Shown: positions 2,907-63,848, counted from the first letter of the stretch. The stretch is 64,000 nucleotides of DNA from Eledone cirrhosa (GCA_964016885.1 OZ024753.1:6014001-6078000); one strand, 5' to 3'. The notes: generated by a model not told the origin, from the letters alone. Program-made: numbers and translations.

Positions 2907-3135
2907 TCAAATCCCATAAACGTTTCTTTTTGGCAGACAAAATATTTGGTATTAAACAATAAAATAACTCTTTTATTGGAGAGTGGTCGCAGTACGGTCA
3001 CTCTTCAGTGGATGAAACTATAGAGAAAATACGTATGACGCATGCACGATATATGTGAGTACCAATATAAATTGTGAAATTTGTAAGAGAATTTGTGCAG
3101 AGAAAAACAATGAGAGTGTCGTATTATAAATAATA

Positions 3136-3331
3136 GTTGTTTCTACTTTTGGCACAAGGCCAGCAATTACCTCCAGTGTATTACTTGTACTTTATTTGAT
3201 CGACTCCGTAAGGATGAAAGGCAAAATCAACCTCGGTGGGACTTGAATTCATACCATAAAGGGCCGTAACTCTATGCTGCAAAGCATAGCGTCCTGCTGC
3301 CAATCCACTGATACTGCCAATCCACCGCCCA
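3136..3331 (-). mobile_element. tRNA-derived SINE with probable TSD
   Basis: Full family motifs; flanks tattataaataata / tattatacataata. Confidence 0.88.
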
Positions 3332-15786: not shown

Positions 15787-17740
15787 ATGGCTGAGCCACG
15801 CCCCCCAGCAATATGTCTGCTGTCGTCTGACAACGGCGTAAAAGTTGAGAGGAGGGTTACAAACATTGTTACAACAGACACCATCACAAACAACGTGAAC
15901 AAAGACAACACCGAGAAGACTAATATCGAAAAAAGTACCACACCAACTACAACAATAACAGCGTCAACCAAAATACAGACAACAGAAAAAATGACAACAA
16001 ATGCAACGACGATATTAACACCACTAACAAGAAAATAAATAACGACAACACCAACAGCAACAATACAAATTGCACCGAAAACAACAACAACGGTGGCACC
16101 AAAAACACAACCAACTACAACAGTGATAACAGCACCAACACCAACAACAAGACCAGTAGCGGCAGCAATAATGGTGCCGCTGAAAAAGGGGCCACTTCTT
16201 TCGCCGGTGTGGCCCGGTGTGGCCCGAAATATAGAAACAGTGCTAGTCACGAGGGAGGAGATGGCAGTCCCAAGAGCCATGGTGTTTCGACAACAGAGTT
16301 TCCCTGAAACCTCCACCCGATTTCTTCAAAGACCAGCAACTGCGCACGGTGACTTACCGCACCGTAAACAAATTGTCACATCGGATGGAGAGAGCCAGAG
16401 AGGCTCAAATCCAAAAGGCCTTGGGGTGCGTCAAGCACGCAAAAACCCACATCACCCGAGGCAAACAGTACGGCACAATAGACGTACTTTTTGCCACCCA
16501 CCAAGAGGCGAAGTCTCACTCTGTGGAAACCCTAAAGTGTGAGGAGATAGTCTTGGCGCCCTCGTACTGCGGGCAGAAAATTGTGAGAGTCAAAGTGATC
16601 CAGGTCCCACCCGACGTGCCCATACCTTGGCTGGCCGCGTCTGTATTGGCTGGAATCGAGGAGAAAACCAGCATACTGCAAATACAGAGAATGGGAAGAG
16701 AGAACTGGCCAGGAATAGGAATGCAAATGCTAATACAGACTGACCAGGAGTGTAACGAGGCCATCCCAGACCTCATAGACCTCGAAGAAGGGCTCCATCT
16801 CCCTATAAGCGTGGAAGGAAGGCGCCCAAAGTGCTATCTCTGTGGGCAGAAGGGTCACATCAGGGCCTTCTGCCCGCAGAAGACATCCAAGAAGAGGGCC
16901 CCACCCCTCCTTTCGATACCTGATCCGCTGCTACCAAGAGCAGGGCAAGCAACAGAGGTAGAAGACCCTTCCATGGTGAGTAGGATGGCAACGTCCGTGG
17001 GACCCATACCAAGGCCACGGACAACTAAAGTAGCGGCAGCAGTGGCGGCAACACCAACAGTCGCAGTAGCTGCGCCGGTGGTAACATCGCCGGAGCGGGC
17101 TCCACTACCAGCACCGACAGCAGTGGAGCTCATACTCCTCCCGGACACCGCGGGGTCCGACATGGAGTGTGAGGCGGGAGGGAAGTGGCAAACGGTCTGC
17201 CACAAAAAACAAAAAAACCCTTAGCTTCACCCTCCAAAAGCGAGGGCAGACAAAGAGGGGTAAAGGCAGCAAGGAAACTTGCAGCAACACCACCATCACC
17301 ATCACAAGATTCACCACCAACATCAACCACACCACCACCAGCATCACCAAAAACACCAACATCGCAAACACAATAAAACACACACACCCAACAGCAACAA
17401 CAAGAAAACAGCAACAAAATCGCCCCCCCCCCCAAAAAAAAAGTACACAGCCATAAACATGGCAAATAAAGAACTCCTACAACACATAAAGCAGCACACA
17501 GACATCACAGAAAAAACTACTACACCCCACCAACACCAAGAACTGTCCCGACAAACATAAGCATCATTGAAATCTCAATAGAACATTACAAACTTTTAAA
17601 GCAAAAATTTCCCAACGCAGTTGGAGATTTCAGAGGGTCGATTACCAAAAGGATATACAGCGACATCCTCTTGGAAACACCCATGAACAGCCAAAGAGAC
17701 GGTTCTACTGTCCCTTCACACGATCAAGGTAAGTGATCCT
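15787..17740 (+). pseudogene. LINE ORF1 (gag-like, CCHC zinc knuckle), disrupted
   Basis: MAEPRPP start; Thr-rich N-terminus with a stop at 16036; frameshift into 16349-17224 containing VEGRRPKCYLCGQKGHIRAFCP (CX2CX4HX4C); Pro/Thr-rich tail. Confidence 0.85.
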
Positions 17741-17768
17741 TTCTCACTTACCCCGATTTTCATCCAAC

Positions 17769-18600
17769 ATGGCCGTACTTAGAATAGGCAGTATAAATGT
17801 ACGTGGCCTGGGGCCATCTTGGAAGGAAGGGTCACCTGCTCAACAACCTCAGGTCACTAAACATAGATGTGGTGGCCATCAGCGAGACCAGAATCTCCGA
17901 AGCACGAGCCTTCGCACCGATTTTGGCCAAGGTGTTAGCAAAGAGATTGGCGCTTGTCGGTGATCTGGTGGGAGAGGCGCAGACATACACCATCCCGGAC
18001 ATATCCATCCACGACAACCTCCAATTCATGCGATACATTATAGAGAGGGTGGTTAAGGATCCTGGCACGAGTGGGGCCCTGATCAATCTAAAGCATTTGA
18101 TAGGGTCGACCATCGGTACCTTGCTGCGCCCCTCGAGGTGACCGGTTTCGAGCCCGTATTTTGGGGCTGGATCGCTCCGATGCACAGCGGCATCTGCTCG
18201 ATTCTGAGGGTAAATGGTCACCTGTCGCAGCCTTTCAGCATCATGCGCTCGGTCCGCCAGGGTTGCCCCCTCTCGTCCCTACTAGTCCTCAAGCCGTTAC
18301 TGCACAAATTGGAGACGATGAGGAGGGTCCCACCCGAACTGGGATACGGGAGATCCGTGTCAGCTTACGCCGACGACGTCACCGTGGTGGTGTCGAGCAC
18401 GTCCAGATGCCCGGCACCGCTCTCAAAGAATACGAGGCGGTTACAGGAGCAAAGATAAACCAGGAAAAGTTGGTGGGCTTGCAGCTCGGCACCTGGAGAG
18501 GCAAGTCCATGCCGTCCGACAGCGAATGGGGCGCTGGACGGAAGGACCGGTTAAATTTCTCGGGGTCTGGTTCGGTCCGGACCTCCAGATAGAGAAAAAC
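17769..18600 (+). pseudogene. LINE ORF2 remnant: APE endonuclease N-terminus fused to RT
   Basis: MAVLRIGSINVRGL, DVVAISETR, then ILAKVLAKRL, IHDNL, KAFDRVDH (alternate frame), SVRQGCPLS, AYADDVTV, YEAVTGAKINQEK. Confidence 0.92.
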
Positions 18601-31622: not shown

Positions 31623-31823
31623 GGAACGAGTAGGACCCCGACGGCTGAGCTCAAACCGTTTCGACGGCTAATTCTGGACAGAATTAGTCCAGAATTAGCC
31701 GTCGAAACGGCTTGAGCTCAGCCGTCGGGGTCCTACTCGTTCCTATTACCCACTCTACTACCCTAAGTATTGAGTACTTTGGTGCGTTATGGTCCACCTG
31801 GTTCCTTACCACATTTCCTTCGT
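31620..31823 (+). mobile_element. Fold-back mini-element (family A): 60 bp arms, 7 nt loop, 77 nt tail, in (TA)n
   Basis: Inverted repeat 31620-31746 with 1 mismatch; long arm and tail identical to the 53209-53403 copy. Confidence 0.9.
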
Positions 31824-32310
31824 TATATATATATATATACATACAGAGAGAGGGAGAGAGAGAGCGGGAGGTAGAGAGAGCTTGGAGTGCTGAGTGGTCG
31901 GACACACTAATCATAGGAGTGCTCCATACATGTGGAGAGGCAGAGTTGGTAGAGAGATAAGTAAAATCTCTTTCTATCCCTCCCCCTCTTTATATATATA
32001 TATATATATATCAAATAAATATATATATATATAATACTGAGGTGTTGGTATACAACCAACATAAACTCAAAATCTATATATATAATAGATACATTTGCCC
32101 TAAACTTCTATTTTTATAATTACGCACACTTTCTAACCATACATTTACACGTACACATATACATATATGCACATCTATGAGCGTATATACATACACACAC
32201 CTAACTATTTTTCTTGATAGATTTTTATATATTTCAATTTCTATTTCATTTATCTATATATTTTTTTGATTTTCTTGATGTGCTTTTCTAAGTATTTGCC
32301 CATGTTTTAT

Positions 32311-47574: not shown

Positions 47575-47937
<363 letters not shown>

Positions 47938-48279
47938 AGGAAAAGAAGTCAAAATGCAAAAGGAGTCTTTTTAAGAATATATATAATATATACGTATACA
48001 CAGAGAGAAAGAGGGAGCGAGAGACAGAACGATAATGCGGCGAAAGCAAGAAAGAAATGACATTCATCACTTCTTTCATATCTCATGTATATAATTAGTG
48101 ACTTCAAATGAATATTATATTCGATATTATAGTATTTAATAAGGAATATTATTAATTATGCAACTCCGAATTAAGGAAATTACAAAGTTAGACATGAAAC
48201 AAAATTCAATGAATTTTTGTCATTTGTAAAATCATAATTTTATATTTAATAAATAGCATGAATATTTCGATGGAAAGAA

Positions 48280-48733: not shown

Positions 48734-48802
48734 TCACGTGGTTGAAAGTATAAGGAAAAGAAACTGAAAATGCAACTGGAGCTTTTTTAAATATTTATTT
48801 AT

Positions 48803-48844
48803 TTACTTTACCGGTTTCCCAGTTCTTATGATTTTCAAAAGTAA
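48803..48844 (-). ncRNA. Minimal hammerhead with U3-A8 core (family C, copy 1)
   Basis: ttactt-TTGAAAA-tca(taagaac)tgg-GAAA-ccgg-TA-aagtaa. Confidence 0.6.
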
Positions 48845-49095
48845 CATTGAGAAGTAGGGTTTGTGCTTCTGGTTTGTCTCAGATATATGTTTATTCGAAT
48901 AATTTTGAACAGAATACTACAATTTCACTGCGATGTATATGGGAGTAGGACGCGAAGGAAGATAAATAATTCAAGAGAAAACCAGCTCTGAGATATTAAT
49001 TTTACCGGGTTACAAATACCATTCTTATAACTATTAGGCTTACAAGAAAAATTACATTTAACCATATATACACATAGGTCGGTATGTACGAATAT

Positions 49096-49142
<47 letters not shown>

Positions 49143-49191
49143 CATATATACACATGAATATAAAAATCATGTTATTTCTATTTACATTTTC

Positions 49192-49225
<34 letters not shown>

Positions 49226-49663
49226 GCATATATATGAATATTTCTACTCAAAGACTACTTACAGAGCTGGTGTATGTAATTTACAAAATGTTAATTGATT
49301 TTCCAACTTAGAATCAATCATACAGAGTAAAGATGAAGCCATTTCGTATGTTTATAATAATAATTGGAATATGACGTATTAACTAAACATTATCAAAAGA
49401 CGTAATTATACTTCTTATGGCGATAGAGTTACATTGTTTCAGTAGTTTCAATTAAAACTATATGAATGAAAGTGTAGTAAATAAACAACAATAACCAAAC
49501 CAACAAAGAAGAGGAGGTGGAAGGAACGTGCAGGGATTGTTAAGCAAAGAATGAAAGTAAGGAAGATGAGGAGAGGGTAACAGACTCTATTACTTCTATC
49601 AACATTAAAACAATATCTCGCGGACCTTTGAAATTTTAGTAACATTTTTATTTACATTAATAA

Positions 49664-49866
49664 CGGTTTCTTATATAGGCAAAGGCCAGCAATTTGAAGG
49701 AGGGGAAATTCAATTAAATCGACCCCAGTACGTTATGGTGCTTTTTTAATCGACCCTGTAAGGATGAAGGGCAATATTAACCTCGGCGGGATTTAAACAC
49801 AGAACGTAAAGAGCCATAACTCTATGTTACAAAGCATGGTGTCTGACCCTCTACCGATACTGCCAA
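49664..49866 (-). mobile_element. SINE
   Basis: Family motifs. Confidence 0.88.
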
Positions 49867-49918
49867 ACCAGAAACGTTCTGCTCGTTCATCAGATGAAAT
49901 AGTTATGAAGACATAGCT

Positions 49919-49990
49919 ATTTTATCTGATGAATGGACTGGAAGTTTCTGTAATGATCGTCTTGCTTCTTGAAACCTTTGGTAATGGAAT
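49919..49990 (+). ncRNA. Hammerhead motif (family D) preceded by an inverted copy of its 5' half (49869-49908)
   Basis: attttat-CTGATGA-...-GAAA-cc(ttt)gg-TA-atggaat; hairpin ttcatcagatgaaatagttatg / catagctattttatctgatgaa. Confidence 0.55.
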
Positions 49991-50062
49991 AATTATATTA
50001 TTTTGTTTATGTTGTATATATACATATATAATATAATATAATATAATATAATATATATAACT

Positions 50063-50200
50063 AGCATAGTTACGTCCCTTTACGGTCTGAGTTCAAATCC
50101 CGCCGAGGTTGACTTTGACTTTCATCCTTACGGGGTCGATAAATAAAGTACCAGTAATATACTGGAAATTGCTAGCCTTGTGCCAAAAGTAGAAACAATT
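50063..50200 (+). mobile_element. SINE, 5'-truncated
   Basis: Family motifs. Confidence 0.88.
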
Positions 50201-50524
50201 ATATTATATATAAATATATGTGTGTGTGTGTGTGTGTATGTGCGGGGTAAAGTATTTTTTTTTGTCACAACTTTCTTTTTAAAATCTCGGTTATTCTACC
50301 GAACAAATATATTGCAATCAGTTATTGAGAGATTTAAATATTTCTTAAGAAACAAGTGTACCATTCCATATGTTCTTATTTACCATTTCGAAAGATTTCA
50401 TGGTGAATACTTTTCTTCCAGAACCAGTCATTGTGTCTTATAAGTTGGAATTGTAAATGAGAGACGCAAGAAAAGGAATATATATACACATATATATATT
50501 ACACGCACATCCACAAACACGCAT

Positions 50525-50565
50525 TTATATATATATATATAATATATATATAATATATACATAAT

Positions 50566-50598
<33 letters not shown>

Positions 50599-51425
50599 AT
50601 ACATATATATATACATATATACATACATATAGTATATATATATACATATATACATACATATAGTATATATATATACATATATACATATTATATTTAATAT
50701 ATACATACATATAGTATATATAATATATACATATTATATATAATACATACATACATAGTATATATAATACATACATACATAGTATATATAATACATACAT
50801 ACATAGTATATATAATACATACATATTATATATAATACATACATATTATATATAATACATACATATATATAATATATACATATTATATATAATATATACA
50901 TACATATAGTATATACATACATATAGTATATATATACATATACAGTATATATATATATATACAGTATATATATATATATACAGTATATATATATATATAC
51001 AGTATATATATATATATACAGTATATATATATATATACAGTATATATATATATATACAGTATATATATATATATACAGTATATATATACATACATACATA
51101 TTATATATAATATATACATATATGTATATATATATAATATATACATATATGTATATATATATAATATATACATATATGTATATATATATAATATATACAT
51201 ATATGTATATATATATAATATATACATATATGTATATATATATAATATATACATATATGTATATATATATAATATATACATATATGTATATATATATAAT
51301 ATATACATATATGTATATATATATAATATATACATATATGTATATATATATATAATATATACATATATGTATATATATATAATATATACATATATGTATA
51401 TATATATATATATGTATGTGTGTGA
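50525..51425. repeat. Compound AT-rich mini/microsatellite with successive 24, 20 and 24 bp units
   Basis: Directly visible. Confidence 0.95.
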
Positions 51426-52012
51426 ATGTGTATATACATGTGTCTGTGTTTACGGTTGCCAGTGAGCATGCAAGGAAGGGAGCGTGCGTCGGCACCTATA
51501 TGTGAATATGTGTATAAACATGAAGATGAACAACATAAAAAAAAAACAACAAAAAAAAAAAACGGATGACAAATTTAATAAAGATGTCCATTTTGTGAGA
51601 ACACAAGAGAAAGAAATATTTGCCCAAATCATGCGTCGCTGGTTTATCATATTAATATATGTTTTTAATAGCTTGTCTTTATTTATATACCTATTTTTTT
51701 TGCGTCTTACAATGTATATGTTAAGAAGAGTGTCTGCACGCGCTGCATATACTAATATCTATATTCAATTCCACAATAATTTGCAAATTCGTGAAGTTAT
51801 CTTCATTACTGCGTATGCGCATTGACAATATACTGAACCAAACTAGAAAAAAGTATATCGTTTCCCCACAGATGATCAATATTTTCTTTATACTGGTGAC
51901 GTATTGTTTGCATATCTTTGTCTAAAAAGAATACGCTGTCTTATATATATATATGTCTGTGTGTGTGTGTGTGTGTGTGCATACGTTTGTTTGCGCGTTG
52001 GTATCTCCATGC

Positions 52013-52307
52013 ATATATATATATATATAAGTATTTATAAATATATACACGTATATGTATGTATATATATGTATATGTATGTATATATATATATATATTT
52101 ATGTATATATATATGTATGTATATATATATATATATGTATGTATATATATATGTATGTATATATATATATATATATATATTTATGTATATGTATGTATGT
52201 ATGTATATATATATATATTTATGTATATGTATGTATGTATGTATATATATATATATATATTTATGTATATGTATGTATGTATGTATATATATATATATAT
52301 ATTTATG

Positions 52308-52339
<32 letters not shown>

Positions 52340-52723
52340 TGTATGTATGTATGTATGTATGTATGTGTATATATATATAAATATATATATGTATGTATAT
52401 ATATATGTATGTATATGTATGTATGTATATATGTATGTATATGTATAAATGTATATATATATATGTATGTATATATGTATGTATATATATATATGTATGT
52501 ATATATATATATGTATATATATATATGTATGTATATATATATATGTATGTATATATGTATGTATATATGTATGTATATATATATATGTATGTATGTATAT
52601 ATGTATGCATGTATATATATATGTATGTATATATATATGCATGTATATATATATGCATGCATGTATATATATATGTATGCATGTATGTATGTATGTATAT
52701 GTATGTATGTATATATATGTATA

Positions 52724-52765
<42 letters not shown>
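52013..52765. repeat. (TATG)n/(TA)n array, opposite polarity to the other large arrays
   Basis: Directly visible. Confidence 0.96.
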
Positions 52766-52766
<1 letters not shown>

Positions 52767-53208
52767 GTGTGTTTATTTAACGTTGTAGTCACATATGTGT
52801 ATTCTACAAGAATGTTTGCAAAGTAACCAACCGGTTTTAATAGGGAAGCTAGTTCTGGAGTGCGCATTAAGAAGAATACAAATGAGCCTACAGCACATAT
52901 GTAAACTCATTGCACAATGTTTGCCAAAATTTCCTGTGAATAGAGTAGTGAAATTGAGAGGGATTATTACTGAAGTATAGAGATATCGTAAAAAAATGTC
53001 GTTTGTTTTATGTTTTTGCTATGTTCGTATTTTCCAGAATCCACAAATTTCTTTAAGATAACACTGTTTTGATATTATAATGAAAACACCTAAATATCTC
53101 ATTAAATAGCTCATATTATAAGAGTGTTGTTTCGTAACACACACACATAATTATACATACATACATACAAACATACAATCATGCAAATGTGTATATATAT
53201 ATATATAT

Positions 53209-53403
53209 ATAGGAACGAGTAGGACCCCGACGGCTGAGCTCAAGCCGTTTCGACGGCTAATTCTGAGTCCAGAATTAGCCGTCGAAACGGCTTGAGCTCA
53301 GCCGTCGGGGTCCTACTCGTTCCTATTACCCACTCTACTACCCTAAGTATTGAGTACTTTGGTGCGTTATGGTCCACCTGGTTCCTTACCACATTTCCTT
53401 CGT
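53209..53403 (+). mobile_element. Fold-back mini-element (family A): 57 bp perfect arms, 4 nt loop, 77 nt tail
   Basis: Perfect inverted repeat 53209-53326; (TA)n on both sides. Confidence 0.92.
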
Positions 53404-53420
53404 TATATATATATATATAT

Positions 53421-53615
53421 ATTTAATATAGAAAAGACTTCTACAGGACTAGAACTGTTTCATTCGGGAGAAATAATCAGGAAGCGCTCATGATTTCTCC
53501 CGAATGAAACAGTTCTAGTCCTGTGGAAGGCTTTTCTATATTAAATATTTATACTCTGCTTCGTATTTAGTACCTTACTTACTGAAGTCACCTCCGATTG
53601 AACCCGGGATAAACT
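53421..53615 (+). mobile_element. Fold-back mini-element (family B); hammerhead fold on the minus-strand arm 53437-53485
   Basis: Arms ~53421-53480 and ~53489-53547; minus strand gcttc-CTGATTA-tttctcccgaat-GAAA-cag..ctg-TA-gaagt (G8U variant). Confidence 0.8.
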
Positions 53616-53656
53616 TATAAATATATATTATTATTATTATTATTATTATTATTATG

Positions 53657-53858
53657 GGTGGTGGTTTGGCAGTATCGGTAGAGGGTCGGACAACATGCTT
53701 TGTAGCACAGAGTTACGCCCCTTTCTGATCTGAGTTCAAATCCTGCCGAGGTTAACTCTGCCTTTCATCCTTACAGGGTCGATAAAATAAAGTACCAGTA
53801 ATGCACTGGGCAATTGCTGGCCTTGTGCCAAAAGTAGAAACAATTATTATTATTATTA
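53657..53858 (+). mobile_element. Full-length SINE in (ATT)n
   Basis: A box-like tggcagtatcgg, B box gagttcaaatcc, central domain, (ATT)n tail. Confidence 0.92.
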
Positions 53859-54929
53859 TGGTTGAATTTCTGATGTTTGTCAGGAAGACTTCACAGTTAA
53901 AGAAAGTGCTCAATACGTGGGAAGAGTATAGGCATCTGCATTATATACAGAGATGAGGTTCAGACTACAACGCGTTAAACTGGTCTTGTCTTGCAGAAGT
54001 CATTTCTATATACAATCAACTCATACTTATATGTAACAATATCTCCCTCCCCAAATATAACAATATATATCACGAATATATATGTATATATATATATATA
54101 TATATTTACAAATATACATATATAATACATATACAATTATATATATTCATATATATATGCATATATATTATTACATATACATACATATATGAATATATTT
54201 ACGTGTACTATATATATATGTATAGAAGTATTTATCTGCATTTTATATATGGCTTTATTTTCGTATGCGATATATATATTCTGTGTTTCTTTATGAGGTT
54301 CTCAGCTTATATACATAAACTAAACATAGCTATCAATTTGAAAACCGGTGTAATATGTGTATATAGATATCTGTAGGCACACGTATACAAAGATACTTCT
54401 GTGACATGTAAATATATGTAAGTAAGAATACATTTATATCTTCTACTTGCATATTTGATATTTTTCTTCATTTTCCTATACTATTTCTTACAGAAATATT
54501 ATTCATATTGTCTCCAATATATTGGGTATTTAGTTGTTAGTTATTGTAATAAAATGACACTATGCCGACTGCTATCTTGAATGCCTCACTTGCTGTCAAG
54601 CAGTTTGTTATTTATTATAAAGCTACAAGGACGGCGACTATATTCTTCAGCGCAATATTACTTTACACTACTTCGTCAATTTTGATGCATTTATTGACTT
54701 TAAGTAGAGTCGTAAATTTATTAACCTCATGACTGAAGAGTTCCCAGTTCGTATCAGGTTACTGGTACAATAAAATTATGATGATGCTGCAATCACCATA
54801 CCTGGAATATTGCAGAAATAAAATCAGTAAATGGAATATGTGCCTGTGTATTGGTTGACTACACTGGGAATATATACAATATTAAAGTGACTAAACAAGT
54901 AGCTTTACAGTGTTAACGTTTGAGCCTAT

Positions 54930-55272
54930 AAGGTATGGTATGGTTCCGTAATACCTGATGGAGTCGTAGGGGCGCCGTATTTCAATGCGGCGTCTCTTGG
55001 GCACCAAGCGCCTGTCGGATCCCATCTCTCTCCAGGCCTGAGTACAGTAGATTTTTTTCCAGAGAAGGATAGAAAGTGAGAAAGAGGAAATGAGAAAGAG
55101 ATATAGACGAAGAATCGACCCAGTACTAGACTGGTACTTTTTTTTATCGACCTCGAATAGATGGAAGGCAAAGTTGACCTCGGCGGGATTTGAACTCAGA
55201 GGGAATAGAGCCGAAACGAATAATATGAAGCATTCTATCCGACGTTCTAACTACACTGCCAATTCGCCGCCT
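54930..55272 (-). mobile_element. Long SINE subfamily: same head and centre, different LINE-like tail ending in (CATAC)2
   Basis: Head 55272-55190; tail shared with 58620-58790 and 45345-45410. Confidence 0.75.
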
Positions 55273-55574
55273 ATATAAATGCAACTAAAGACTATGTAAA
55301 ATCCGAACTGATTGGGTATAATTTAAGTTAAACTTTGTAATATTCTACCATATTACAAGAGCTGAATCTACCGAGGACTGGGCATAGCTTCAATACAGAA
55401 TGTGGTGTATTTTAAGTTACATAGGTAATCCCAAAACTGCATAACCACAACAGCTATAACGATTAATATCTACATTATCTTCTGATGCGGCCATTAAAAA
55501 TCAGAGTATGTTAAAATAGACACGTAAGCAAGAATTTATGGCGAATTACGTAGAGAGCAAAAATTACAACATTA

Positions 55575-55740
55575 ACAACAACTACTACTACTACTACTGC
55601 AGTTGCTGCCACATCTACGACTACTAGCACGAAAACCACTACTAAAGCAATAGTGCTGCTGCTGCTGCCACATCTACGACTACTACCACGAAAACCACTA
55701 CTACTAGTAGTAGTGCTGCTACTGCTACTACTACTTATAT
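55575..55740. repeat. (CTA/CTG)n low-complexity region with a ~60 bp tandem duplication
   Basis: gctgccacatctacgactacta.cacgaaaaccactact occurs twice. Confidence 0.85.
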
Positions 55741-55924
55741 TATGGAATCTAATTTAGCCACAAGATCAGCAATTATTCATAAGAAAAAGTTGAATGAATC
55801 GATATCAGTACTTAACTGTGGCATTAGCTAATCGATTCCGTAATCATGAAAGGCAATTTGACCTTGGTATCATTCGATCCCAGGAATTAATGAGCCATAA
55901 CATATACTGCAAAACATTTATCCA

Positions 55925-56090
55925 GATATATTGATGTTGAAGTGAATAATATGGTGGTTACAACAAATACCAATCACATTGATAGTAGGTGCATTGGGGT
56001 CCATTAGAAAAATCCAGACAAATAGATAACGCCCATTGCATGATGCATTATCACACACTATATAGAGGAACACTCGCCTACAGGCACTTT
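55925..56090 (+). mobile_element. R4/Dong-type LINE C-terminal fragment
   Basis: LIVGALGSIRK motif. Confidence 0.5.
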
Positions 56091-57065
56091 ATTTAGATTA
56101 TATTTAATGCAATTGAAACACAAAAAAGAATCATGACTATGTTTATATTTCAACCTATTCCGGAAAATAAATACATAAGCCCTCCATTTTTTGTAGATTA
56201 TAAAATGGAGTAAAATACAATTTGCTTACGAATTAATTGGATGTCACGTATTTTGGGTTGGTTTTGCTTTCTTTCCTGTTTTTTTACATTAAGTTTCAAT
56301 TTTGTGTTTCATTATATTTTTCTGCATTGACTGGTATAAAAAAAATATTTGAAACTTATAGCGGTAATAAAGCTATCCATTCGTATATTATAAATCCGTA
56401 TTTTAGGTTTTTGTCTATATATATATTTTCCATTGTTCTGTTCAGTCATCCGGCACAGTTACAATGTATTAAGTTATTTGTCTCTATATCCTAACCAGAT
56501 ATAATTATAACAAAGAAACTTTAAAGTTTGTTTTTCTCATTGTAATTCAATTTTTCTTATATAATGTACAACAATATCACCTTGCGATAAATCTCACTAA
56601 TTTCTATAGTATATGATTATTTTTCCAGTTATATATTCTGTAAATAATACTTTGTTTAATTGGAAGGAGATTAATATTTTAGGTGCTGAAGGTTCGTGTC
56701 TGATTCTCAGCACTGCTTGCTAACCATGGCATGTGCATACTATATTCTTTTTATTAGACTATTCATACACCACAGGCTGATACAGCCACTCATATATAGG
56801 CGTTGTGAGAATCGTATAACTAACGAGGATTTGGTTAGGCTTCAGTTGAGATGGGAATATTAACGTATTATTAGAACCCAGAGATTCCCTTTAGGTTATA
56901 AATATTAAAATATATAAATTTTTTATGTCATATATATTGACATTTTAAACTTTTACGGAAGGCACCGCCATGCACCCTTGTTGTTACTGTATATCGGGAT
57001 TCAATAACTGGGAAAATGTCTCAGCAAGAAGAACCATAACTGAAACACAAACCCTCCATTTCAAT

Positions 57066-57109
57066 TTTACTTTTGAAAATCATAAGAACTGTGAAACCGG
57101 TAAAGTAAA
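57066..57109 (+). ncRNA. Minimal hammerhead with U3-A8 core (family C, copy 2)
   Basis: tttactt-TTGAAAA-tca(taagaac)tgt-GAAA-ccgg-TA-aagtaaa; element ~57030-57160 ends in (TA)n. Confidence 0.6.
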
Positions 57110-58619
57110 TAAATGAATATTCTTAAAAGACTTTTGTTGTATTTTCAATTTCCTTTCCATATATATATATATACACACGTGTGTGTGTAGGTGTGTGTAG
57201 TTGTAGTAGTAGTAGTAGTAAAATATAGGTGAATGTGAAAAAGGAAGACAGTGCTCAATCATGTGTGAGCCTTGATGTAATATATTAATTACTTATGTTC
57301 ATACACGGGAGAAAAGGCGCAACTTACGGTTTCAAGAGAGCGAGAGGGACTCCTCGTTGAAAGAATTAGAGGCAAGCGTGATCTTAGTGAAGTTTGGACT
57401 CAGAATGCAAAGAGCTGGAACAAATATGGCCCGACTTTGTAATAACTCTGGCAATTCCCCGGCTTTTGATTAAATGATCTTGAACAATATAACTTAATAC
57501 CAGAGATTTTAATTTGTTTTACTTTCAATATATGTTTTGAAATCTCTATATCTTTAGCATAAGAAATTTCGAGAAATAAATTGTCAAACCCATAATCATA
57601 TTTGTCTATATTTTGCAATTCTCTTATTTGTGTTTCTAATTTATATAATTTCCATTTCGTACTGATGAAGATGTATTTAATTATGGTGTGCCATAATGTT
57701 ATGCTAATTAGCTATCTTAGTTATTACGCTCAGTTCAATGGGTCAAATACAATGTAATAATAATTATGACTGAAGCCACCTAAAACGGTAGCAAATTAAT
57801 TCAAATCTGATTGACTATTAGATTTATATCAAGCGATGTTTCATATATTCACGATAATACTACTGTACACAATATTTTTCTCTATTTTGAATGTCCTTCC
57901 ATTTCGAGAGCTAATACCTCGATATTAACTGCACAGCAGCCAATAATGGAAAACGATGTGGCAGAAATGGATTACGACCTTTACCTATGCTATATATATT
58001 AATATAGATTTGTCTCTTCAGATTCCTAAGGAGTTGATAGCAGTAGTTTAGTGTATGGCGTTAATGCATGGTATGTTTCAAACGTATTTCTCTGCTTACC
58101 GCACTTAGTGTATCGGTTAGACTTAATACGAAATAATATTTTACACTGTATTGTCACAGCTGATCGACGTGAAAATAGATTCCCAGTTTGTTATTTCTAA
58201 TGCCAATAGTACAAGAACTTGACCCATGAATATGACTGTGAATTATACAGGACAGATAAGTATACCATCTCTTCCAATTATGTTATAATTACAGATGTTA
58301 TTGAAATCTGCTTTGAAGGACTAACCGTGGTGCAGTTATCCATGTGATTTGTTTAATACTTTTAAGTATAGAATTAAGGATGAATTACTATAGATTTAAA
58401 TGAATTATCAGCAGTTTCACCAAAAGCGGAGTAGGAATCGTGTCTTAGAAAGGGTTAGATGAATTTAATGTATTTGAAAATAGATTCATTCTATAAAAAT
58501 ATAAACTTTACTAATAGGAAACACAATTTGAGATATTACATTTCGTTTGTTATAAATACTGGAAGTCTCTTATATATATATTTACTATATATATATTTAC
58601 TATATCTATATGTGTATAG

Positions 58620-58941
58620 AGGCTTAACTCCTGATGGACATGTATTGGCGCTGTAGTGACATGCATTCTGTCTTAGGAATATTCAAACCTAACGGAGCCC
58701 ATCACGTCTCCAGGTCCCAAAACAGCCGATTTCCACAAGGGAAGGAGAATGAGTTGAAGGTAGAACATGCGAAAGAGATATAGAGGAAGAATCAGCTCCT
58801 GTACTTCACTGGTTTATTTGAATTATCGTATTCGATGAGATGAAATGCAAACTTACCTTCCGTTGGTTCGAGTTCACAGTGACTGAAAGAATACAGAAAA
58901 TCGTTGTCTGAGGTTATAACGATTTTGCCAATCCACCGTCT
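58620..58941 (-). mobile_element. Degenerate copy of the long SINE subfamily
   Basis: Colinear with 54930-55272 (cccatc..tctccagg, gaaagagatataga.gaagaatc, tgccaat). Confidence 0.6.
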
Positions 58942-60039
58942 CATTATTTACATATAATGCTTTTTATCTCTTTGGATTTTATTCTGTCGTATGTGGCTTA
59001 TACGTGATTATATTAATTTTAATTGGGTTCTTATTTAATATGGTGTTATTTTGCCCGATTTATACTGATTGTGTCATGTTACACCAGAGTTTTCAATATG
59101 AGACACCAACACCCCCTGTGAATATTTGTCTAACAAATGTCAATGAAAACCATTATTGCTAGGTTTTCGCCAGCCTAGGGAATAATGAATATATTTCAGT
59201 ATGATAAATCGAAACAGTTTTGGGAATTTAAACAATGAAAGAAAATCCTCCGTGATATAATCTAATCATGATTCATGAGTTCACAATTTGAAGAAAAACA
59301 TCGTCATTGGGTTTACGTTATCTTAACCTCAAATTAAATTAATCAGTCTATGGTATCCATAGTAATGAAATTATATCACTGATTATTGAAAGAAAATTTG
59401 TTTGGAAGAATTAGTTTGATAAAGTAGAAATATTTCCTCACAAGAAATATGTGATTGCTAATTCGCAATTATAATTCGAGATGATAGACCCCCCCCCCCC
59501 CAAACAAAAGAGAAAATGTAATTATTATTTTAGTTATGATTTTTGATGGAAAAAATAAAGTAAAGTGGATTTTCCATGTCGATATCAATCCAAACATTCA
59601 CTAGAAGTTCGACCTTTGTTCAGAAATAATTCAATGAATTCGAAGTATTATATGACAAATATAATTAACTGTAATGTTTCCTACAAATAGAGAGATCCAA
59701 GCGGAATAAGATTGTAAACATATGTTCCCGTTCATTTGTGATATCTTATCTTAGTTCACACACACACACACACACAGTTATAAAATGCAACTATATATCT
59801 ATAATTTCATCTATCTATCTATCAATCTATCGATAGAAATTAACCGCTAATATTTCGGCCAACTGACCTTCCTCATTTGCGAAAGGTCACGTGACGACAC
59901 AGCTACAATTACTAATATAGGTAAAATGCTTCTGTCAACAGACCGAGCTTTGTATACAAGAGAACAATGCATGAGCCTTATACAACTTGTGGAGTAGCTT
60001 CCAGGAGTCCAATAAACCTATCGTATATTTTTTATTGAT

Positions 60040-60330
60040 TTCTATGAAGACTTGAGAATAGATATGAAGAGAAACTGGTACATGATAATAAATTGAAATT
60101 ACCGCACTTGGAACGGTCACAGAAAACCTCTGGAAAAAAAAAGCTTGATAGAATTGGAATCAGTCCCAGCATAACATCATTACAAAACACCTTTGGGAAC
60201 AGAAAATATCTTGCGAAAAGCACTGCCTATCTGAGGTTACATAACTTGATAAGGTGCCTAATAAATAATCTATTGTTAATAAGATCATCACTGTAAAAAG
60301 GATAATAATAATAGTAATAATAATAATAAT
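60040..60330 (+). mobile_element. R4/Dong-type LINE 3' end with (TAA)n tail
   Basis: YEDLRIDMKR, ALGTVTENL, LDRIGISPSITSLQ, LGTENILRKAL across frameshifts. Confidence 0.7.
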
Positions 60331-60340
60331 TATTATATAT

Positions 60341-60543
60341 ATAGGAAAAGAGTGAGGAGCCCGACCTCTGATCTCCGGCTGTTTCGATATCTAGATCCAA
60401 ACTGTTCGGATCTAGCTGTCGAAACGACCAGAGTTCCGCGGTCGGGCTCCTGACTCTTTTCCTCTTACCCACTCTACTACCCTAAGTATCGAGTACTCTG
60501 GTACCTTATGGTTCACCTGGTTCCTTACCACACTGTCTTTGTT
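60341..60543 (+). mobile_element. Fold-back mini-element (family A, diverged subfamily)
   Basis: Imperfect hairpin plus the same tail ttacccactctactaccctaagtat..cacctggttccttaccaca. Confidence 0.85.
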
Positions 60544-60576
<33 letters not shown>

Positions 60577-61499
60577 TGAACTGTAAATTATAATCAATAT
60601 GGTGTATTAACCGGCTTACCAATATATACTGTGAGCTTATTTGCCTATGTGTCAGCAAGACACTCGCCATATAACTGAAACAATACTGAAGGAAAAGAAA
60701 TAAACAATAATGATGATAATAATAATAATAATAGTAGTAATATATTTGTAATTACTTGTTTTATTCTAATAAGAGATATAATTATAACGATTAATAATGA
60801 TGTCGAAGGATGGCTATAATTAGGGGTGGTAGTTTATAAAGACGGTTGCATGAACACATTTTTACATTGTTTACAGGAATATCGATAATTTGCATATAAA
60901 CATTAGCAATATGTGATCTTTAACGATCAGTTATTTACAATTCATTATTACTTTCTTTTTTCTCCTCCCGAAACTAATTTCTTTCTTGGTTCAATATTTA
61001 TTTTCTCCACCATCGGCAAAGAAGACAGAATAAAAAGTGAAATCAAAATATGATTTATAGTTTTCCTTGGAGTTTTATTCTTTTCGTATTTAATTCGTTT
61101 ATCACTTAGGGTAAATATATATAAATTTGGTTACAGAGTGCAGATGTTATTTATTTAAATTTGTTTAAATTTCTTCGATTTGGGGGCGCATCAGAACATT
61201 CTAGTACGCAGAAAAGCATACGTAGAAACGCAGCAGGTTACGCGATTTATCAGAAATACCGGAATAATTCATAAAATTGGCATATAGCACCACCTCCGTC
61301 TCTTCCTCTTTAACATCTACGCTCTGTTTCTCTACCTATCTCCTCTCCCACGTAAATATATATTAAAATTACGTGTAGTATAGGTTGAAAACAAAATGAG
61401 TCAGAGCAACCATTTCAAGTAAATATATTCTATTTTCAATAACATTTTAGGAAAGCGATTTACACTTGTACTATGAATGTTTATTGCTTCACTACATCA

Positions 61500-62460
61500 T
61501 ACTCCAGCAGATCTGATATTTTTACATGTGGTTGGCACGAGAACATCAGCATCGTGCTTTCTTCAGCATTTTTTGTAATAGTGATATTTAAGTCTCTTGC
61601 TATATGTGACTCTTAAATTACAGCTTCGTGTCCACAAAACCATCGGATAGACCAAGTTCAGAAGTTGAGAAATGGGAACTGAGCAAACACGAGATTCGAG
61701 CTACTTATACAGTACCATTCTTGTTAGTAACGTTCGCGTCAGCAGTAGTTATGTCAATTATATATACCTTTGACTTGTGTCTAATAAACTGTGCCTGGTC
61801 TTCTAGTCTCTATACCGGGATCTGTCTGAATGTTGAGACCATATTATTCTTTGAGCCTGTCAATTTCAACTATTCTTTCTCCTTGGTGTTGATTCTATTT
61901 TCTGTTCACTTCAAACCCTCATTCACACAATATTTCCCATTGAAGACTTTTAGCTACACATTCATAGTGAAGCTTAAATGTTTGTACCATGCAGTTGCAA
62001 CTACTTACAATGTGTGTTACTGACCCACCGTTTTTATTGTATATTGGGCATTTGATTTTCTCATTAGGTTTGTCCATTTCCCAGCCATCATACTCAGTTT
62101 CATCTAATAACAGGATATCACATTAAAAGATACTTATACCTTGGTTTGTCTTAAATACTCTCTATGGAGGTTTTTTTTCCCCAAAATATTTCTTCCCCTT
62201 GCATTTCATTGGACTACCTAGCTGCAGTTATAAAACTTTCTGAAATGTTCATCATATATCTCTCCAGTTTACGTTCTGCCATATCAACACAGCTATGTAA
62301 GGACATTAATCCTCTCCATTGGTAGATATAATCCGTACTAACTATTGTTTTTATTGTTTTTTTAACCAGTTTGAATTGTCCCTTGAACAATTCGAGAAAG
62401 CAGCTGAGTTCTTCGTTTGAGATACTGTCCAGGTATTAATAGCTGTAATACCTTTTCCTC
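61500..62460 (-). mobile_element. R4/Dong-type LINE relic: RT thumb, zinc knuckle, restriction-like endonuclease
   Basis: Minus strand AINTW, LYLP..RGLMSL, KCPIY..SVTHIVSSC, IQTDPGIETRRP, IIDI. Confidence 0.8.
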
Positions 62461-63654
62461 ATCAAAAATATATTATTGTTTTTATCATCACTCTTGGTGA
62501 TATTCTTATTAATGTTATCGACATTATCATCATTGTAATCAGCATCATTTTCCTTTGTTATTCCAAAGTAGTGTCCTTTTAATTTTCAATTTCCTTTTTT
62601 TTTTTTTTTTTTTTTTTTTTTCCTCAGCCATTTATATTTGTCTTTATATATTTTGAATATAAAAGACATTACATTGTAAATTTCAAATTTCCCCTTTCCC
62701 AACACACCTACATACTATTTAATGAACAGACAATTCAATGTAATGTAGCCAATTCGTACACAAGTAACATAGTGGCGCCTCAGTCATTTTGAGACTAAAT
62801 AATTGCTCATATAACTTGAAGCTATGTTTCATTTGTAAAAATGAAACTAATATTTTATTGTTTTTATTTGCATCTCCTCTACTTTTAATTTATTATCATT
62901 ATTTTTATTGTTGTTTTGCTGCTGTTATTTGTGTTATTAGAATTCAATTTAAATGTTAGAAATCATTTTGATTTTATAATTGCAATTACTAATTGTAATC
63001 GATGTGGGTATTATTGTTATCAGAATTATATGTAGAATTATATTTACCACCACCACTACTACTACTACTGATGCTGCTACTACTACCACCAATATTAATT
63101 CTACTGTCCCTGCTACTACTATTCTAGTTTATCTCTTTTTACCACCAAAAGTATACGTCAATAATTATAAAATGACATGCAAAATGCGATGTTTTTCGCA
63201 ATCATTTCATAATTGGAATTAGTGTTATATTCAGTTTATCATGATTTTGTAAACATCGTTCATTTATATAGTCAAAATCGTAAGTAATTTGCAATGACAA
63301 AATATATACGATTCATATGTAACTTAGTGTGTTATCAATATACACGCGGGCAGTTGCTTTTTTCTATGCTGAAGATTTAAATTGTTTACGTTACTTTCAA
63401 ACGAACATCGTTAGAGTTTGCCTCACTTTATGAGTTTCTTAACTTATTTTAATTGTCGTTCTTTAATGTCTTGAGAAATATATTGCATACGGGTCTATAT
63501 GTTTATATATAAATATTGTATCTCAGAATATGCAAATTTTATTCTATGACAATGATCTTTAAGAGGAATGTATATGTTAACTTGTATCGCACAGTTTCAT
63601 TCAGTCTAATATATAATGCATTCAGTCAATATATACATACACACACACACACAC

Positions 63655-63785
63655 AACAAAGAAGGTGTGGTAAGATACCAGGTGAATCATAAAACACCAG
63701 AATACTTTGGGTAGTAGAGTGGGTAATATGAAAACAGTCAGGACTCCGGCGGTTGAGCAACCGGCCGCTAGATCCGAGCAGTTCC
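63655..63785 (-). mobile_element. Family A element without an inverted arm
   Basis: Reverse-complement tail gtggtaag..ccaggtgaa..gggtagtagagtgggtaa; starts at aactgctcggatctagc like the 60341 copy. Confidence 0.75.
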
Positions 63786-63843
63786 TTTACCGTTTTCGCA
63801 GTTCTTGTGCCTTTCAAATGTAGAATTGAGATGGAGGGTTTGT

Positions 63844-63848
<5 letters not shown>
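63784..63848 (-). ncRNA. Family C hammerhead, diverged copy 3, truncated by the family A element
   Basis: cacaaaccctccatctcaat leader as at 57046; TTGAAAG-gca(caagaac)tgc-GAAA-acgg-TA-aagg. Confidence 0.5.

Follow-up and report, generated by a model that had tools for sequence, protein, structure and literature searches.

Truncated terminal repeats of a high-copy, probably Neptune-type Penelope-like element carry a U3-A8 minimal hammerhead motif in Eledone cirrhosa

The closest described counterparts of the motif studied here are the hammerheads in the pseudo-long terminal repeats (pLTRs) of the Cercyon Penelope-like elements (PLEs) of Schistosoma mansoni, for which Cervera and de la Pena (2014, PMC4209133) report a U3-A8 core and approximately 1,300 matches. 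In the supplement of that report, a PLE row, S. mansoni(4), has the core UUGAAAA, and a row for S. japonicum next to it has CUGAAGA; the minimal hammerheads of PLEs are described as cutting weakly as dimers, and an extra base between positions 9 and 10.1 is common but not universal, at least one published row being without it. Perreault (2011, PMC3088659) reported several natural examples of covariation from C3-G8 to U3-A8, for which in vitro activity is said to have been shown earlier, and used a defective 10.1-11.1 pair to reject candidates. A C3-G17 pair is presumed to inhibit minimal hammerheads (PMC3884650). In Anolis carolinensis, the Poseidon PLE named PAc used mainly uncut RNA as its template, and mutation of its hammerhead still allowed insertion in vitro (Frangieh 2024, PMC11167929). 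We analyzed a 64,000-nucleotide stretch of the genome of Eledone cirrhosa (GCA_964016885.1 OZ024753.1:6014001-6078000; hereafter the window), in which a preliminary description had noted three dispersed segments resembling minimal hammerheads. Our analysis indicates that these segments are quite probably the truncated ends of a high-copy Neptune-type PLE, whose pLTR carries a minimal type I hammerhead with a family-wide U3-A8 pair and predicted slow, dimer-only cutting, and that the three old copies in the window are likely inactive.

Family members were counted as exact pattern matches across the 3.0-Gb genome, with positions 3 and 7-10.1 left free. The pattern gave 14,111 matches, compared with 0 for the reversed-pattern control, and the hammerhead family is therefore not a chance assembly. 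As evident from these matches, approximately 13,965 (~99%) contained U3-A8, as obtained by subtracting two classes of exception: 81 contained U3 without A8 (by hand count, 36 G, 25 U and 20 C at position 8) and 65 contained C3 with a purine at position 8, namely 64 with C3-A8 and 1 with C3-G8; C3 with a pyrimidine at position 8 lies outside these two classes. U3-A8 is thus the consensus of the family and not the product of decay, as had been proposed from the three segments, and the exceptions look like private changes. The number of C3 matches was inflated by a local tandem duplication (G000:C1:348863669-348949714; L084-L090), in which one insertion is present seven times with a spacing of ~9.6 kb. 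A pattern one base longer yielded 16 insertion variants, which were excluded from the family counts.

An older C3-G8 subfamily was not found among the 36 loci inspected. The candidates L177, L178 and L163 were rejected because they look like junction or deletion products, and L179 was rejected as a single double change, of which ~0.2 would be expected by chance from the 64 and 36 single changes. The assembled contigs of three sequencing runs contained no listed change at position 3 or 8, although such contigs are not independent support and are blind to RNA ends, and no relatives of the family were found in metagenome contigs. A pattern that combined a CUGANGA core with this family's helix III gave 110 matches, compared with 15 for the control (other helix III types lie outside this count), and most of the 100 listed among these 110 belong to a different repeat. 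A CUGANGA search would accordingly miss the roughly 14,000 U3-A8 matches, as the preliminary description had anticipated.

The CUGANGA matches included a second (TA)n-associated repeat family (L147-L176, for example G000:C1:14076717-14076750), which has a CUGAUGA core, the same ACCGGU palindrome, an apparent 2-base insert 5' of C3 and an irregular helix II; it is likely another PLE hammerhead variant. Additional small groups (L171, L180, L181 and L182) also combined CUGANGA cores with the ACCGGU palindrome and were unrelated in sequence to the U3-A8 family.

We compared the E. cirrhosa motifs with the Cercyon motifs. Both are type I, lie in a pLTR, occur mostly as solo truncated copies, contain U3-A8 and are predicted to work as dimers, and the E. 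cirrhosa core, UUGAAAA, equals that of the S. mansoni(4) row. In E. cirrhosa, however, helix II has 3-4 bp (6-8 in Cercyon), no extra base is present between A9 and position 10.1, helix III is a 6-nt palindrome and the copies number more than 14,000. Position 17 is A in the E. cirrhosa family, whereas the two published rows, as read, have U and G. The novelty of U3-A8 that the preliminary description implied could not be upheld, since this swap has already been published for natural cores, PLEs included (PMC3088659, PMC4209133). The examples of Perreault are rare, in contrast to E. cirrhosa, in which a single variant prevails throughout a repeat family.

The segments had been treated as a free-standing family; we found instead that they are fragments of a PLE pLTR, and the connection with PLEs that had been suggested is borne out by the reverse transcriptase (RT) and GIY-YIG domains encoded upstream. 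L138, L141 and L144 are pLTR-ORF-pLTR units (ORF, open reading frame) with sense-strand motifs ~4.7 kb apart. Of the two predicted cuts, the upstream one lies ~170 nt 5' of the first ATG and the other ~1,080 nt 3' of the RT-GIY-YIG stop; because of the latter distance, we rejected the possibility that an ORF terminus accounts for the conserved stretch. In the six copies that were long enough (L137, L138, L140, L141, L142 and L144), the element contained two overlapping ORFs (L138:3353-6819 (+)): ORF1, with 409 residues and no Pfam match, and ORF2, an RT-endonuclease (EN) frame of 775 residues that lies in the -1 frame and has no Met before residue 163. ORF2 matched Pfam RVT_1 with an E-value of 1.3e-6 and 28.7 bits (cut-off 29.6; 29.9 bits in L099) and, at the C-terminus, a GIY-YIG domain with an E-value of 2.1e-6. 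It also contained the CX2-5CxxC linker (residue 645), the CCHH nuclease motif (residue 686), GxKF (residue 49) and DKG (residue 155), the two His being placed by eye. The protein search returned 39,997 candidates, 84 of which were scored; because many of these keep an open 775-residue frame, the host PLE is young and abundant. The two-ORF arrangement comes with a heptamer, U UUU UUA, whose register is slippery and which was present without change in at least 18 of the 30 loci L105-L134. The sequence suggests that ORF1 and ORF2 are likely joined by a -1 frameshift; a GUG start or splicing would be other routes to ORF2 expression. Among the best 120 relatives, none exceeded 803 residues and none matched ORF1.

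The copies have two alternative end points, separated by ~62 nt; they adjoin (TA)n and are frequently arranged as inverted pairs, all of which are known PLE traits (PMC8557442, PMC11167929). The RT, the CX2-5CxxC linker, the C-terminal GIY-YIG with CCHH, GxKF and DKG, together with (TA)n targets and tandem and inverted copies, are shared with the Neptune EN+ PLEs of Craig (2021, PMC8557442), and the host fits a Neptune-type EN+ PLE (or Nematis), a class that was read from motifs. Canonical EN+ PLEs are described in that paper as single-ORF, whereas the E. cirrhosa family has two overlapping ORFs; the legend of its Fig. 1 nevertheless mentions a frameshifted ORF1. With PAc, the E. cirrhosa PLE shares a pLTR hammerhead, two 3' ends parted by a tail, and insertions that were probably made mainly from uncut RNA. 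Unlike PAc, in which a C3-G8 core overlaps the start codon of a single ORF, it has its motif well upstream of the ATG, a tail of ~62 nt and two ORFs.

In total, 157 copies were sorted, with best-hit and variant-picked loci left out; 153 fell into five subfamilies and 4 remained outside. Divergence outside the core and the predicted energy of the hammerhead dimer (hammerhead-compatible fold, one copy per subfamily) were 11.3% and -4.5 kcal/mol in subfamily E (n=9), 9.0% and -8.9 kcal/mol in C (n=19), 8.5% and -8.9 kcal/mol in D (n=12), 4.2% and -15.5 kcal/mol in B (n=42), and 2.6% and -21.1 kcal/mol in A (n=71); the ages of E and D are likely inflated because most of their copies were taken from variant lists. 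The hammerhead-compatible monomers ranged from -0.4 to +7.9 kcal/mol, subfamily A having the value of -0.4. Only in subfamily A was the hammerhead fold near the best dimer fold (-22.5 kcal/mol), and the free dimer cofold of a young subfamily A copy kept helix II and formed helices I and III between the two molecules.

The core, loop II and the ACCGGU palindrome were identical across all five subfamily majorities, and the position 3/8 pair never flipped within the family. The helices, by comparison, varied. Helix I has 4 bp in subfamily A and 3 bp in B, D and E, and helix II is closed by G10.1-C11.1 in A, B and D, by G.U in E and by U.U in the C majority. From E to D, G10.1.U11.1 becomes G-C; from D to B, a fourth helix II pair is gained; and from B to A, A.G at 2.4-1.4 becomes C-G while the 2.5-1.5 pair is lost. 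Across the subfamilies, 2.4-1.4 is A-U, A.G or C-G. In subfamily C, two helix I mismatches are repaired and the 10.1-11.1 pair is lost. By eye, these changes amount to five gains and three losses. The family has the testable defining features of a PLE minimal dimeric hammerhead, self-cleavage itself being a prediction of the model. In the mechanism that we propose, two motifs would pair through the ACCGGU palindrome and form helix III, U3-A8 would take the place of C3-G8, and the cut would fall 3' of GUA; cutting would trim or release a minority of transcripts, and most insertions would be copied from uncut RNA.

Several observations weigh against this interpretation. The order of the helix changes was read from divergence and not by rooting a tree, and such changes are few in number; the class of the host was read from motifs. 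Zero core changes over five close subfamilies, where a rough estimate gives ~2 expected, is insignificant alone. Subfamily C has spread (183 exact 30-mer matches) despite its U.U at 10.1-11.1. Folding prefers U3.A17, a pair that A17 can form with U3, by ~0.7 kcal/mol per motif. The preliminary description had looked to a genome-wide comparison for fixed U/A at positions 3 and 8 together with helix covariation; fixation was evident at ~99%, but covariation did not rise above that of shuffles (148/500, 163/500 and 99/500, with 33 aligned copies, 26 of them distinct).

The 5' ends of the copies bear on whether the motif cuts. An anchor placed downstream matched 16,942 times, and we surveyed the first 100 of these matches; in this sample, the members of an inverted pair do not count as independent, and the final stretch is rich in AT. 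Relative to the predicted cut, 26 copies began upstream of -75, 54 at -75 to -57 and 6 at -56 to -1, while 4 began within 0 to +3 and a further 10 within +7 to +23. The predicted site was therefore spanned by 86 of the 100 copies, and most templates were likely uncut. Transcription may start within the pLTR at the sharp hotspot of 54 copies (L138 about 3135-3155); if true, this would explain the many uniform 150-210 nt solo fragments. Across the genome, ends at -2..0 gave 99 matches and the control at -9..-7 gave 55, the two patterns differing in length and acceptance; when indels and duplications were removed by eye, the numbers were ~90 and 20. A hand tally of junctions among the 100 rows listed out of 772, which is right-biased, placed 7/40 at 0 and 6/40 at a second peak at +5.

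Part of these data would also agree with an alternative in which the motif is derived from a hammerhead but no longer cuts in any subfamily; it would then be a passenger, or would be retained because the pseudo-LTR uses its structure for protein binding or as a promoter. The intact site crossed in most sampled copies, the junction tally, in which 5' ends do not peak sharply at the cut, the amplification of subfamily C and the predicted U3.A17 pairing would all fit it, as would the anole PLE, whose hammerhead mutants had no effect on insertion in vitro (PMC11167929). It is nevertheless countered by the gain of pairs in the core-adjacent helices from E to D to B to A, with the dimer strengthening at each step, and by the excess of 5' ends at -2..0 over the control, and we consider it unlikely. 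Similarly doubtful is a ribozyme tuned by selection, in which U3-A8 and A17 are fixed with U3.A17 as a brake, master copies have rebuilt helices II and I, and the youngest and most numerous subfamily is an active dimer that cuts a minority in vivo and leaves copies starting at the cut. By analogy with the presumed C3-G17 pair, we infer that U3.A17 pairing would slow cutting. We retain the slow, dimer-only hammerhead of a Neptune-type PLE as the preferred explanation.

The family copies of the window are listed in Table 1.

Table 1. Fragments of the PLE family and their hammerhead motifs, in positions of the window.
Feature	Position	Strand	Description
Copy 1	48735..48885	-	5'-truncated fragment of a PLE pLTR (subfamily C) that includes part of the 3' tail; ends in (TA)n; outer limits approximate
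Hammerhead motif, copy 1	48803..48844	-	6-bp helix I; U3 48838; A8 48833; U10.1.G11.1; palindromic helix III; A17 48809; predicted cut 3' of A17
Copy 2	57024..57163	+	5'-truncated PLE pLTR fragment, subfamily C; ends in (TA)n; 5' limit approximate
Hammerhead motif, copy 2	57066..57109	+	7-bp helix I; U3 57073; A8 57078; palindromic helix III; A17 57102; predicted cut 3' of A17
Copy 3	63781..63848	-	PLE pLTR fragment, subfamily D type; (TA)n at the 5' end, different repeat after; motif decayed
Fourth family fragment	47935..47984	-	3' end only, without hammerhead; additional to the three copies first noted

The homology of the three segments was confirmed at their reported positions: copy 1 was 85% identical to copy 2 over 122 nt (E-value of 2e-34), and copy 3 was 85% identical to copy 2 over 66 nt (E-value of 7e-16). 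Our cut position in copy 2 also agreed with the one given previously. The statement that each segment folds as a hammerhead held in part. A Watson-Crick 3-8 pair, GAAA and UH were present in copies 1 and 2, and helix I of copy 2 pairs 57066-57072 with 57103-57109, but helix II was poor in both; it is closed by a U.G pair in copy 1 and, in copy 2, has 2 pairs only with a U.U mismatch at 10.1-11.1 (57080/57092). Copy 3 (U3 63817, A17 63788) had a good helix II, but it contained A9G (63811), which departs from the core, and C15.2A (63793), its helix I was broken at 63819 with 1 contiguous pair left, and the palindrome of helix III was also broken. The forced hammerhead dimer of copy 3 was predicted at +12.5 kcal/mol, and this copy is not expected to fold as a hammerhead; for copies 1 and 2, the best dimer fold was predicted to be more stable than the hammerhead dimer by ~11 kcal/mol. 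When the window was scanned for cores of the form C/U-UGA-N-G/A flanked by five pairs, copies 1 and 2 alone were recovered, and no ORF of the host element was found within the window.

The window copies are old, damaged and among the worst representatives of the family, each lacking at least one defining hammerhead feature, and the folding models indicate that all three are likely inactive. That they are themselves working ribozymes cutting host transcripts is highly improbable: copies 1 and 2 retain the core, the palindrome and a helix I of 6-7 bp, but the copies are solo and 8-15 kb apart, copy 2 lies on the opposite strand to copies 1 and 3, and the fold energies and damage in helix II or the core argue against activity. 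The chance of the hammerhead being a fortuitous match inside an ordinary repeat is negligible, because, even though Rfam gave no hammerhead for the window among the best 150 of 338 matches or for a young family copy among its 3 matches, the sequence is AT-rich and covariation is weak against shuffles, all core letters, the palindrome and three helices are in register (73% of cells paired, compared with 21-47% when slid, for a structure derived from the same sequences), and the motif occupies the pLTR of a PLE, a location at which a hammerhead would be expected, with a 7-nt core equal to that of a published PLE hammerhead (PMC4209133).

Additionally, the different dispersed repeat that follows copy 3 was located at 63655-63760 (-) of the window and recurs there at least three times, at 60448-60568, 31716-31824 and 53296-53404. 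At 16247-18590 (+), we observed broken ORFs that resemble a non-LTR retrotransposon, with gag-like and RT-like segments assigned by eye.

The U3-A8 swap itself is already known, but the family illustrates that searches restricted to CUGANGA can overlook a genome's principal hammerhead family. Two parts merit further attention, the subfamily series and the host's two-ORF layout. With its five dated subfamilies, the family offers a natural series in which to ask whether cutting by PLE hammerheads takes place in vivo and whether it aids mobility.

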